Under the pieces are notes generated by a model. The model saw only the letters and a list, made by a program, of their open reading frames with translations. It ran no database searches and was not told where the DNA came from. Of a stretch of DNA of 64,000 bases, positions 31,620 to 63,785 are shown one piece after another (within the stretch, counting starts at the first letter, position 1; each line of letters starts with the position of its first letter). Origin of the DNA: Eledone cirrhosa (lineage: Eukaryota); NCBI GenBank assembly GCA_964016885.1, contig OZ024753.1, positions 6,014,001 through 6,078,000 on the forward strand, given 5' to 3'. A program made the translations under genes and the position numbers.

Positions 31620-31823
31620 ATAGGAACGAGTAGGACCCCGACGGCTGAGCTCAAACCGTTTCGACGGCTAATTCTGGACAGAATTAGTCCAGAATTAGCC
31701 GTCGAAACGGCTTGAGCTCAGCCGTCGGGGTCCTACTCGTTCCTATTACCCACTCTACTACCCTAAGTATTGAGTACTTTGGTGCGTTATGGTCCACCTG
31801 GTTCCTTACCACATTTCCTTCGT
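31620..31823 (+). mobile_element. Fold-back mini-element (family A): 60 bp arms, 7 nt loop, 77 nt tail, in (TA)n
   Basis: Inverted repeat 31620-31746 with 1 mismatch; long arm and tail identical to the 53209-53403 copy. Confidence 0.9.
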
Positions 31824-32310
31824 TATATATATATATATACATACAGAGAGAGGGAGAGAGAGAGCGGGAGGTAGAGAGAGCTTGGAGTGCTGAGTGGTCG
31901 GACACACTAATCATAGGAGTGCTCCATACATGTGGAGAGGCAGAGTTGGTAGAGAGATAAGTAAAATCTCTTTCTATCCCTCCCCCTCTTTATATATATA
32001 TATATATATATCAAATAAATATATATATATATAATACTGAGGTGTTGGTATACAACCAACATAAACTCAAAATCTATATATATAATAGATACATTTGCCC
32101 TAAACTTCTATTTTTATAATTACGCACACTTTCTAACCATACATTTACACGTACACATATACATATATGCACATCTATGAGCGTATATACATACACACAC
32201 CTAACTATTTTTCTTGATAGATTTTTATATATTTCAATTTCTATTTCATTTATCTATATATTTTTTTGATTTTCTTGATGTGCTTTTCTAAGTATTTGCC
32301 CATGTTTTAT

Positions 32311-32388
32311 ATTGCCTCGTCTGACGAACGAATGAAGTCGTTTATTTCGTATTCGCCTCGTTCGGGAAACCTCTGGTAATGAGGTAAT
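32311..32388 (+). ncRNA. Type I hammerhead motif (family D)
   Basis: attgcctcgt-CTGACGA-...-GAAA-cc(tct)gg-TA-atgaggtaat; helix I 10 bp (2 G-U), GUA triplet; helix II closure imperfect. Confidence 0.65.
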
Positions 32389-33268
32389 AATATTGTATTG
32401 ATTTTATACACTATATATATATATATATATAAAATATACAAATATATATACAGTATATATATATATATATATATATATATTGCTTCAGCCATAGTTTCAT
32501 TGTTGCATTGTTTAATTGTGTTATAGTTATTATTTTTCTTTTACTTTCCTATTACTTTGTGCAAAAAGTATTGAAGAAAGAATATTTCTAATAAAAATCA
32601 TTTTTTATTTTCCTCTGATCCGTGTATATCCTAATTTGCCTTCGTTACAACAATCTTTCCTTGTTGAAATTTTGTTACTGCTTTTCATAAAATTATCACT
32701 TTCGATAGTAATATCAATTCCTGTAGATATGTAGATATTTGGGAAGAACAAAATATAAAACCAATAAGAAAACCCCGCCGGTTAGATGGTTGGATACGAT
32801 TCGGAATAAAACAATATGTGTATTATACGAAGGATACATTTTGCTTTGATCTCACGCTCCGATATACGTCTCATTTCTAGTTTCGGATAAATTATCAACT
32901 GATAATACAAAATAACAAGATTCCTATATATCTAAAAAAAAAATAAAGAGATCGGAAGCCAAAATATATATATTGTAAAGATAACAGTTTACAAATACAC
33001 ACATACATAGCCGCGGGCAGAACCATACACATAGAAACATGCACAAACATATATATATATATATATATGTGTGTGTGAATGTGGTATAAATATATATATA
33101 TATACGTGTGTTATATATATATATATATATATGTATGTGTTATATATATATATATATATATGTATGTGTTATACATATATATATATGTGTGTGTGTGTGT
33201 GTGTATATATTTATATACATCTCTCTCTCTCTCTCTCTCTCTATTTATTAAAATATATATATAAAGTA

Positions 33269-33447
33269 ATTGTTTCTACTTTAGGCACAAGGCCAGCAAT
33301 TACTCAGTGCATTACTGGTACTTTTATTTTATCGACTCCGTAAGGATGAAAGGCAAAGTCAACCTCGGCGGGATTTGAACTCAGATCGTAAAGGGACGTA
33401 AATATGCTGGAAAGCATGGCGTCCGACCCTCTACTGATACTGCCAAA
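33269..33447 (-). mobile_element. SINE
   Basis: Family motifs. Confidence 0.9.
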
Positions 33448-34184
33448 AGTAATAATATATATATAGTAATAATATATATAAAATATATATATTATTACTA
33501 TATATATATTTATATAGTAATATATATATATATATATATAAAGTAATAATATATATAAAATATATATATTATTACTATATATATATTTATATAGTAATAT
33601 ATATATATATATATATAAAGTAATAATATATATAAAATATATATATTATTACTATATATATATTTATATAGTAATATATATATATATATAAAGTAATAAT
33701 ATATATAAAATATATATATTATTACTATATATATATTTATATAGTAATATATATATATATAAAGTAATAATATATATAAAATATATATATTATTACTATA
33801 TATATATTTATATATATATATATATATATATATATATATATATATATAGTAATATATATATATATATAGTAATAATATATATAAAATATATATATTATTA
33901 CTATATATATATTTATATATATATATATATATATAGTAATAATATATATAAAATATATATATTATTACTATATATATATATTTATATATATATAGTAATG
34001 TATATATATATAAAGTAATAATATATATAAAATATATATATTATTACTATATATATATATTTATATATATATATAGTAATATATATATATATATATATAT
34101 ATATAGTAATAATATATATAAAATATATATATTATTACTATATATATATTATTTCTATATATATCTTTATATATATATATATAT
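33447..34184. repeat. Tandem minisatellite of AT-rich palindromic units (~60-90 bp)
   Basis: Repeated agtaataatatatata-aaa-tatatatattattact. Confidence 0.93.
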
Positions 34185-60330: not shown

Positions 60331-60340
60331 TATTATATAT

Positions 60341-60543
60341 ATAGGAAAAGAGTGAGGAGCCCGACCTCTGATCTCCGGCTGTTTCGATATCTAGATCCAA
60401 ACTGTTCGGATCTAGCTGTCGAAACGACCAGAGTTCCGCGGTCGGGCTCCTGACTCTTTTCCTCTTACCCACTCTACTACCCTAAGTATCGAGTACTCTG
60501 GTACCTTATGGTTCACCTGGTTCCTTACCACACTGTCTTTGTT
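60341..60543 (+). mobile_element. Fold-back mini-element (family A, diverged subfamily)
   Basis: Imperfect hairpin plus the same tail ttacccactctactaccctaagtat..cacctggttccttaccaca. Confidence 0.85.
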
Positions 60544-61499
60544 TATATGTGTATATATATATATATATATATATATTGAACTGTAAATTATAATCAATAT
60601 GGTGTATTAACCGGCTTACCAATATATACTGTGAGCTTATTTGCCTATGTGTCAGCAAGACACTCGCCATATAACTGAAACAATACTGAAGGAAAAGAAA
60701 TAAACAATAATGATGATAATAATAATAATAATAGTAGTAATATATTTGTAATTACTTGTTTTATTCTAATAAGAGATATAATTATAACGATTAATAATGA
60801 TGTCGAAGGATGGCTATAATTAGGGGTGGTAGTTTATAAAGACGGTTGCATGAACACATTTTTACATTGTTTACAGGAATATCGATAATTTGCATATAAA
60901 CATTAGCAATATGTGATCTTTAACGATCAGTTATTTACAATTCATTATTACTTTCTTTTTTCTCCTCCCGAAACTAATTTCTTTCTTGGTTCAATATTTA
61001 TTTTCTCCACCATCGGCAAAGAAGACAGAATAAAAAGTGAAATCAAAATATGATTTATAGTTTTCCTTGGAGTTTTATTCTTTTCGTATTTAATTCGTTT
61101 ATCACTTAGGGTAAATATATATAAATTTGGTTACAGAGTGCAGATGTTATTTATTTAAATTTGTTTAAATTTCTTCGATTTGGGGGCGCATCAGAACATT
61201 CTAGTACGCAGAAAAGCATACGTAGAAACGCAGCAGGTTACGCGATTTATCAGAAATACCGGAATAATTCATAAAATTGGCATATAGCACCACCTCCGTC
61301 TCTTCCTCTTTAACATCTACGCTCTGTTTCTCTACCTATCTCCTCTCCCACGTAAATATATATTAAAATTACGTGTAGTATAGGTTGAAAACAAAATGAG
61401 TCAGAGCAACCATTTCAAGTAAATATATTCTATTTTCAATAACATTTTAGGAAAGCGATTTACACTTGTACTATGAATGTTTATTGCTTCACTACATCA

Positions 61500-62460
61500 T
61501 ACTCCAGCAGATCTGATATTTTTACATGTGGTTGGCACGAGAACATCAGCATCGTGCTTTCTTCAGCATTTTTTGTAATAGTGATATTTAAGTCTCTTGC
61601 TATATGTGACTCTTAAATTACAGCTTCGTGTCCACAAAACCATCGGATAGACCAAGTTCAGAAGTTGAGAAATGGGAACTGAGCAAACACGAGATTCGAG
61701 CTACTTATACAGTACCATTCTTGTTAGTAACGTTCGCGTCAGCAGTAGTTATGTCAATTATATATACCTTTGACTTGTGTCTAATAAACTGTGCCTGGTC
61801 TTCTAGTCTCTATACCGGGATCTGTCTGAATGTTGAGACCATATTATTCTTTGAGCCTGTCAATTTCAACTATTCTTTCTCCTTGGTGTTGATTCTATTT
61901 TCTGTTCACTTCAAACCCTCATTCACACAATATTTCCCATTGAAGACTTTTAGCTACACATTCATAGTGAAGCTTAAATGTTTGTACCATGCAGTTGCAA
62001 CTACTTACAATGTGTGTTACTGACCCACCGTTTTTATTGTATATTGGGCATTTGATTTTCTCATTAGGTTTGTCCATTTCCCAGCCATCATACTCAGTTT
62101 CATCTAATAACAGGATATCACATTAAAAGATACTTATACCTTGGTTTGTCTTAAATACTCTCTATGGAGGTTTTTTTTCCCCAAAATATTTCTTCCCCTT
62201 GCATTTCATTGGACTACCTAGCTGCAGTTATAAAACTTTCTGAAATGTTCATCATATATCTCTCCAGTTTACGTTCTGCCATATCAACACAGCTATGTAA
62301 GGACATTAATCCTCTCCATTGGTAGATATAATCCGTACTAACTATTGTTTTTATTGTTTTTTTAACCAGTTTGAATTGTCCCTTGAACAATTCGAGAAAG
62401 CAGCTGAGTTCTTCGTTTGAGATACTGTCCAGGTATTAATAGCTGTAATACCTTTTCCTC
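61500..62460 (-). mobile_element. R4/Dong-type LINE relic: RT thumb, zinc knuckle, restriction-like endonuclease
   Basis: Minus strand AINTW, LYLP..RGLMSL, KCPIY..SVTHIVSSC, IQTDPGIETRRP, IIDI. Confidence 0.8.
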
Positions 62461-63654
62461 ATCAAAAATATATTATTGTTTTTATCATCACTCTTGGTGA
62501 TATTCTTATTAATGTTATCGACATTATCATCATTGTAATCAGCATCATTTTCCTTTGTTATTCCAAAGTAGTGTCCTTTTAATTTTCAATTTCCTTTTTT
62601 TTTTTTTTTTTTTTTTTTTTTCCTCAGCCATTTATATTTGTCTTTATATATTTTGAATATAAAAGACATTACATTGTAAATTTCAAATTTCCCCTTTCCC
62701 AACACACCTACATACTATTTAATGAACAGACAATTCAATGTAATGTAGCCAATTCGTACACAAGTAACATAGTGGCGCCTCAGTCATTTTGAGACTAAAT
62801 AATTGCTCATATAACTTGAAGCTATGTTTCATTTGTAAAAATGAAACTAATATTTTATTGTTTTTATTTGCATCTCCTCTACTTTTAATTTATTATCATT
62901 ATTTTTATTGTTGTTTTGCTGCTGTTATTTGTGTTATTAGAATTCAATTTAAATGTTAGAAATCATTTTGATTTTATAATTGCAATTACTAATTGTAATC
63001 GATGTGGGTATTATTGTTATCAGAATTATATGTAGAATTATATTTACCACCACCACTACTACTACTACTGATGCTGCTACTACTACCACCAATATTAATT
63101 CTACTGTCCCTGCTACTACTATTCTAGTTTATCTCTTTTTACCACCAAAAGTATACGTCAATAATTATAAAATGACATGCAAAATGCGATGTTTTTCGCA
63201 ATCATTTCATAATTGGAATTAGTGTTATATTCAGTTTATCATGATTTTGTAAACATCGTTCATTTATATAGTCAAAATCGTAAGTAATTTGCAATGACAA
63301 AATATATACGATTCATATGTAACTTAGTGTGTTATCAATATACACGCGGGCAGTTGCTTTTTTCTATGCTGAAGATTTAAATTGTTTACGTTACTTTCAA
63401 ACGAACATCGTTAGAGTTTGCCTCACTTTATGAGTTTCTTAACTTATTTTAATTGTCGTTCTTTAATGTCTTGAGAAATATATTGCATACGGGTCTATAT
63501 GTTTATATATAAATATTGTATCTCAGAATATGCAAATTTTATTCTATGACAATGATCTTTAAGAGGAATGTATATGTTAACTTGTATCGCACAGTTTCAT
63601 TCAGTCTAATATATAATGCATTCAGTCAATATATACATACACACACACACACAC

Positions 63655-63785
63655 AACAAAGAAGGTGTGGTAAGATACCAGGTGAATCATAAAACACCAG
63701 AATACTTTGGGTAGTAGAGTGGGTAATATGAAAACAGTCAGGACTCCGGCGGTTGAGCAACCGGCCGCTAGATCCGAGCAGTTCC
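63655..63785 (-). mobile_element. Family A element without an inverted arm
   Basis: Reverse-complement tail gtggtaag..ccaggtgaa..gggtagtagagtgggtaa; starts at aactgctcggatctagc like the 60341 copy. Confidence 0.75.

Follow-up and report, generated by a model that had tools for sequence, protein, structure and literature searches.

Introduction

Insertions of endonuclease-bearing (EN+) Penelope-like retrotransposons carry an inverted, 5'-truncated copy, have a tail at one end and are biased towards (TA)n targets (PMC8557442, PMC3846280). The origin of these inverted copies and tails has been called open (PMC8557442). With an anole element, both target strands were cut and extended in vitro, and reverse transcription started at two sites around the tail (PMC11167929). 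Hammerhead ribozymes are widespread, both solo and as opposite-strand pairs 100-700 bp apart (PMC4209133), and a preprint on retrozymes treats tandem derivatives (bioRxiv 10.64898/2026.07.22.740005). Penelope is among the expanded families of cephalopods, with hairpins unmentioned in the available sections of that paper (PMC8967140). In this study we describe a short fold-back repeat, family A, which is likely a non-autonomous passenger or derivative of a Penelope-like retrotransposon, together with a sister repeat, family B. Both were found in a 64,000-nt stretch of DNA (the window; GenBank assembly GCA_964016885.1, contig OZ024753.1, positions 6,014,001 to 6,078,000 of the forward strand) recorded for Eledone cirrhosa. 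The window has 30.5 % GC and is rich in microsatellites.

Like EN+ Penelope-like insertions, family A combines an inverted tail-less copy with a tail-bearing one and has two fixed 3' ends around the tail, traits that mark a Penelope-like derivative, and it shares with them the (TA)n or AT-rich target and a hammerhead near the 3' end. Unlike them it contains no open reading frame (ORF), is only 139 nt long with a 78-nt tail and half a ribozyme, and its 5' edge is near-fixed instead of scattered. Two further groups compare with family A as short, non-coding sequences derived from the terminal repeats of Penelope-like elements, namely retrozymes without long terminal repeats (non-LTR retrozymes; bioRxiv 10.64898/2026.07.22.740005) and the non-autonomous Chlamys elements, MRC1 among them (PMC8557442). 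However, these retrozymes are head-to-tail tandems with complete hammerheads, whereas the copies of family A are dispersed, arranged head-to-head and lack CUGANGA, and family A is thus not a retrozyme. The fold-back-plus-tail layout is already known; what is new is a unit this short, with half a ribozyme and a 5' edge that is fixed, and it is this unit, with its fixed tip and its shared tail hairpin, that merits further attention. No such family or fixed 5' edge was found in literature titles and abstracts, a scope outside which Repbase, Dfam and subscription papers may hold the family.

Results

Searches of the window with blastn and nhmmer gave four related copies of family A, with seven arms in all and no further copies or arms (Table 1). 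They begin at 31620, 53209, 60341 and 63655, as stated in a first-pass annotation of this DNA. The identity of long arm and tail reported there for copies 1 and 2 is complete, over 139/139 nt rather than ~138, and the tail common to the two is 78 nt long and not 77. Copies 1 and 2 form hairpins of 60 and 57 bp, respectively. In agreement with the annotation, their loops differ (AGAATTA in copy 1, AGTC in copy 2), their short arms end on the same base, with one mismatch in the short arm of copy 1, and both are located in (TA)n; their flanks are unrelated. Copy 3 is 82 % identical (115/141), still forms a hairpin and has both arms extending to the 5' start. Copy 4, about 69 % identical, has no inverted arm and abuts a piece of another repeat, and the description as a fold-back family applies to copies 1-3 and not to copy 4. 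The hairpin-plus-tail layout is present in 3/4 copies in the window, and the long 3' end, which is not readable in the read data, is the same in 4/4. When whole cassettes were folded, copies 1-3 had z values of -17.9, -18.9 and -11.1 against shuffled sequences. The 1.5-kb flanks were unrelated in 5/6 pairings of copies; in the sixth a single 58-nt piece was in common, at unlike offsets and inside a common repeat. Homology between the flanks of copies 1 and 2, which had been named as grounds for giving up independent insertion, was not seen within these 1.5 kb.

Table 1 Positions of family A, family B and their structural parts in the window
Feature	Positions	Strand	Description
Family A copy 1, inverted arm	31620..31685 (whole copy 31620-31824)	-	Tail-less; includes 7 extra 5' bases of inverted-arm type (= loop)
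Family A copy 1, long arm and tail	31686..31824	+	Long arm to 31746, then 78-nt tail
Family A copy 2, inverted arm	53209..53265	-	Tail-less; 57/57 complementary
Family A copy 2, long arm and tail	53266..53404	+	Long arm to 53326, then tail; the 139-nt unit
Family A copy 3, diverged subfamily	60341..60543	+	Inverted arm ends at 60403; long arm begins at 60404 and is followed by the tail
Family A copy 4	63655..63784	-	No inverted arm; long arm and tail present, without the GAAA region; 5' junction with 5 bases of inverted-arm type
3' half of type I hammerhead	53284..53306; likewise 31704-31726	+	GAAA, 6-bp helix III, GUC; without CUGANGA
Putative helix II remnant, fixed 5' start	53266..53283	+	Last 5'-strand base, 9-nt loop 2, 7-nt 3' strand plus C
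Bulged tail hairpin motif	53332..53357; also 31752, 60471; in family B 53553, 43721	+ (first site)	
Family B	53425..53610	+	Inverted arm, long arm, ~65-nt tail; layout as family A, other sequence
Family B	43664..43848	-	Full-length inverted arm containing a complete type I hammerhead (core 43788, + strand); shortened tail arm
Family B	1212..1370	-	Long arm with CUGAUGA, helix III deleted; plus inverted arm

A third dispersed repeat is found at 57043-57108, 48803-48868 and 63786-63847 (82-85 % identity), and copy 4 meets it exactly where an AT-rich stretch starts in the other two copies of that repeat.

Sequence data beyond the window were aligned to one 265-nt stretch (53246-53510) for 4 of the 11 runs listed. 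X1 consists of contigs, possibly the source of the window itself, X9 and X10 are restriction site-associated DNA (RAD) reads from other samples with the same species label, and X5 consists of contigs from another organism. All depth was on the family A part; the family B part was masked as repeat in the read alignment. Family A is an abundant family: 23,668 of 12.47 M reads in X9 and 24,444 of 12.79 M in X10 fell on the stretch (0.19 % each, a share which, with the bias of RAD data, gives no copy number), and it was present in 18,902 contigs of X1 and 352 of X5, the depth sums of which are likewise not taken as copy numbers. The short end was fixed at 53326 in the reads. Exits from the short-arm end into (TA)n numbered 3,571 + 1,376 in X9 and 3,093 + 1,458 in X10, about 32 and 29 % of local depth, respectively, and the proposed clustering of short-arm ends at one site is thus borne out in the reads for roughly 30 % of the arms.

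At the 5' side, depth collapsed at 53264-53272 in all four runs, including the second organism (X5). Of the opposite-strand joints, for which a random spread had been raised as a possibility in the annotation, 17 of the 21 listed (of 26) had one side at 53264-53279, within 16 nt. As the joints are filtered and depend on one another, binomial figures for this clustering are crude and are given no weight. The other side was variable in the main table of joints (n=15), falling at 53303-53365 with no foreign letters listed between the two. In 10 of these 15 the tail-bearing arm was the truncated one and began inside the tail, while the tail-less arm reached the fixed start. The near-fixed 5' start inside a hammerhead fold was therefore recovered, but the tail-bearing arm does not always start there, as had been thought. 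Several joints of the main table were found in both RAD runs, and the joint of 53266 to 53348 in X1, X9 and X10. Loose ends before 53266 and 53273 had no common upstream sequence (agreement 0.34-0.47, among the rows listed), and several tip variants were present among the 12 of 20 indels listed.

The presence of helix III and GUC and the absence of CUGANGA, noted from the first reading, were confirmed with a hammerhead scan. GAAA, helix III and an NUH site are present in copies 1 and 2, and GAAA is deleted in copy 4. In family A the motif scan gave neither a complete type I hammerhead nor a CUGANGA core with helix I. No hammerhead family was among the 150 of 338 Rfam matches listed, which matched microsatellites or hairpins and stayed under the curated cut-offs. 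GAAA is preceded by 18, 18 and 17 nt of long arm in copies 1, 2 and 3, and the distance of 15-22 nt assigned earlier to all copies is correct for these three. In a published table of Hydra-clade hammerheads, compared by eye, 5/26 rows have a 7-nt helix II with the 5' strand ending in TA, and 4 of these 5 continue with CGAA, as family A does. By eye, family A appears to fit this geometry, with its first base as the final A of the helix II 5' strand, followed by the 9-nt loop, so that the fixed edge would correspond to the tip of helix II. The helix II remnant was assigned from this match together with the boundary in the reads, and a putative 5' start at the border of helix II and loop 2 is supported.

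The sequence of loop 2 is present on both arms in copies 1-3, which do not have the tip expected if a longer template snapped back afresh each time, as first proposed, namely a single loop 2 between the two strands of helix II. Copies 1 and 4 also speak against fresh snap-back, since upstream they have inverted-arm bases instead of the parental helix II strand. The 7 extra bases of copy 1 equal the tip of copy 2 minus two bases, a two-base loss at the same place of the tip occurs in 10 contigs of X1, and the junction of copy 4 repeats the tip of copy 3.

A bulged hairpin early in the tail is common to families A and B. Its motif had five matches in the window, whereas 30 shuffles gave 0.1 on average; the pattern was derived from these very copies. 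A similar hairpin was clear by eye in 2/6 published Hydra 3' ends examined (Hydra-2_Amil and Hydra-2_Ajap) and partial in 2. The partner enzyme may use this hairpin as its recognition signal.

Family B is represented by three copies in the window, and the layout of an inverted copy plus tail is found in 3/3. In the copy at 43664-43848 little more than the tail remains of the tail arm, and the inverted arm is complete. One family B copy has a complete type I hammerhead with both core halves and helices I-III in the motif scan, and cleavage is predicted. Helix I shows compensatory changes among the three copies, and loop 2 is variable (by eye). The arms mostly begin near the 5' edge of the hammerhead. 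The loop of helix III does not vary among the arms that retain it, in contrast to loop 2 (53440-53545, 43780-43845), and this may stem from two ribozyme copies pairing with each other. One copy of family B lies about 20 nt from copy 2 of family A, in the same (TA)n tract.

Elsewhere in the window, weak zinc-knuckle and reverse transcriptase (RT) fragments in separate frames at 16247-18455 likely belong to a decayed LTR-type retrotransposon. An ORF with C2H2 zinc fingers at 21700-22077 (-) resembles what we take to be the C-terminus of an RTE-type long interspersed element, and a short interspersed element (SINE) that follows 53650 suggests a genome of the octopus type. Another kind of fold-back is found at 42407-42506, 22295-22340 and 42128-42240, where hairpins surround (TA)n or AT-rich loops and the neighbouring sequence is mirrored on either side. 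Further hammerhead-like core matches with helix I of 6-10 bp occur at 24966 (-), 32321 (+) and 49926 (+), and are possibly ends of other Penelope-like families. Kilobase-scale low-complexity tandem arrays at about 3650-6150, 10500-13600 and 38800-41800 give spurious long ORFs.

Discussion

Penelope-like mobilisation of family A is very probable, and the Penelope-like origin, the independent insertions and the recent activity of one subfamily that were suggested in the first-pass annotation all stand. The 139-nt unit itself, having no ORF for a Penelope-type RT and GIY-YIG endonuclease, is not an autonomous Penelope-like element. Family A resembles the Hydra clade in its (TA)n preference, in the bulged tail hairpin (by eye) and in hammerhead geometry, family A having a 7-nt helix II, TA-loop-T and CGAA, and family B being of the U-stem-U type. 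Unlike the Hydra clade, which is defined by its protein, family A is accompanied by no such protein. On these sequence features we lean towards a Hydra-type partner. The listed 3' end of Hydra-1_Obim does not match the tail of family A, and this element is not established as the partner. A 7-nt match between the inverted arm of copy 3 and helix II of Hydra-1_Obim was dropped, as the other arms differ there. A Naiad partner was also considered from the label 'HHR_half_core' of Naiad_Ovul and was lowered, because the label denotes a first half of the core that is widely separated from the second, unlike family A. The exact family motifs had 0 loci in metagenome contigs and 0 in viral contigs, and were at no element end in the available part of the PMC8557442 supplement.

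We propose that family A is copied from its own hairpin RNA as a passenger of a Penelope-like, probably Hydra-type, element, a reading that we consider evenly poised between right and wrong. A partner RT/GIY-YIG enzyme would bind the tail region and nick both strands of the (TA)n target. Priming would then take place from one DNA end at 53404, where the tail ends, and from the other at the internal site 53326, comparable to the anole element in vitro. The internally primed cDNA would extend to the fixed 5' edge. The tail-primed cDNA would either stop early, giving an asymmetric inversion, or reach the edge, giving a symmetric hairpin of ~60 bp, and the two cDNA ends would be joined with a few bases lost or gained, giving varied loops. 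Variable asymmetric joints are expected from priming at two sites. Symmetric copies would need displacement synthesis or a second RNA. The templates would be transcripts of hairpin copies, with copying ending at or a few bases beyond the tip, where the cDNAs complement each other, and it seems that the edge could stay fixed because such transcripts serve as templates. Helix II of the hammerhead is likely where the tip first arose, and with CUGANGA thereby lost the RNA would no longer be self-cutting.

In L1 twin priming a second primer acts on the same RNA, which results in an inverted 5' part and loss at the junction. The asymmetric copies of family A resemble this outcome, but both priming sites are fixed in family A and the symmetric copies duplicate the arm. 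The extra 5' bases of copies 1 and 4 look as if copied across a hairpin tip, and therefore the template RNA is likely a hairpin. Of the parts of the proposal, a short template instead of a long parent is fairly probable, and of the readings of the fixed edge we favour, at about even odds, the one in which the hairpin tip causes it. It is conceivable, although rather doubtful, that family A is a self-regenerating hairpin retroelement, in which the fold-back at helix II removed the catalytic core and with it self-cleavage, the ~60-bp hairpin transcript is the template and priming at two sites rebuilds the tip in each round, and which persisted across subfamilies and species, seeding very many double-stranded RNA (dsRNA) cassettes.

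Several observations weigh against these proposals. Copying from a hairpin template is carried by the two copies with extra bases, and templated repair or later arm deletion could mimic it. Recurring tip variants would be equally expected from any fixed RNA end. Neither side was at the fixed start in 4 of the 21 joints listed, and helix III of copy 3 is largely decayed. The reads stacked before 53276 in the RAD runs (1,591 and 1,652; agreement 0.75 and 0.70, respectively) have an upstream stretch in common, with a helix-II-like GGCT(T)A at its end. They could stem from a longer parent or from a single multi-copy locus, and the same position was heterogeneous in X1 (agreement 0.47). Symmetric hairpin junctions were rare in the RAD reads, with a depth of about 45 and 35 just left of the tip, a result whose reading is restricted by the short flank there and by a restriction-like cut at 53273 (7,227 and 7,329 molecule ends in the RAD runs). 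This cut, together with hairpin suppression, could explain the scarcity. No target-site duplication is readable in (TA)n. The tail of 78 nt compares with 30-40 nt usual for Penelope-like elements, its stability was not above that of shuffles (z -0.16), and the hairpin appeared in the best fold of the copy 3 tail only. Comparison with Hydra was by eye and covered Hydra ends only, none from other clades. A scan of the window gave neither an autonomous partner nor a longer parent. Among 61 of its 107 ORFs, the other 46 being mostly microsatellite frames, there was no match to GIY-YIG, and the single RT match, downstream of a zinc knuckle, looks LTR-type.

A linear SINE-like short RNA with a 5' end defined by a promoter start or by processing, moved by a Penelope-like enzyme and giving hairpins as dead-end products, would agree with the sharp edge in two organisms and the heterogeneous loose ends, with the head-to-head join of copy 3 at the same base and with family B arms that also start near the 5' edge of the hammerhead. 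We consider it unlikely. As the hammerhead cut site is 40 nt downstream of the family A start, the hammerhead cannot generate that end, and such an RNA leaves unexplained why copies 1 and 4 have extra bases of inverted-arm type. Nor is a promoter for such an RNA visible, and family A does not look like a SINE derived from tRNA, having no tRNA-like part or tRNA gene; the best Pol III B box has 3 mismatches on both strands, and the one A-box-like site (1 mismatch, minus strand) is without a B box, as judged by the usual consensus sequences. Comparably improbable, and close to the view taken in the first-pass annotation, is that a long Penelope-like element bearing a hammerhead gave rise to the copies as dead-on-arrival 3' ends, repeatedly truncated at helix II by snap-back or cDNA annealing. 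In its favour, the layout is as published (PMC8557442, PMC3846280), hammerheads are widespread both solo and in opposite-strand pairs (PMC4209133), the edge falls at helix II and the RAD stack has its helix-II-like upstream stretch. Truncation of a long parent, however, predicts a single-loop tip and some copies that continue to CUGANGA. Such a tip is present in 0/3 hairpins of the window and absent among the 12 of 20 indels listed, which have little flank and so argue weakly, and most loose ends listed have no common upstream sequence.

A TA-targeting miniature inverted-repeat transposable element (MITE) or Helentron-type element could likewise be short and abundant, with an inverted repeat and TA flanks. 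It is nevertheless very unlikely, since the inverted repeat of family A is not terminal, leaving the 78-nt overhang, the inversion joints vary by copy, either arm may be truncated, and hammerhead parts and the tail motif are common to published Penelope-like ends. Segmental duplication, misassembly or a fold-back artefact of the libraries might be suspected from the identical arms of copies 1 and 2 and from the error-prone sequencing of hairpins, but is refuted as a general explanation by unrelated flanks, different loops and the same joints in separate runs, and has practically no probability left.

The basic layout of family A is ordinary for the Penelope-like class. Yet with a unit of 139 nt, great abundance, both 3' ends fixed and the 5' edge fixed as well, it offers a minimal substrate of natural origin for a process of inversion and tail formation in which only the priming step has been demonstrated in vitro (PMC11167929). 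Its many junctions could separate twin priming on the same RNA from models with two RNAs, and family A also suggests that spread can do without an intact hammerhead. If transcribed, each symmetric copy would give a near-perfect duplex of ~60 bp. Should family A indeed regenerate itself as a hairpin, and the host be a cephalopod, these copies may form a major pool of ADAR and Dicer substrates.

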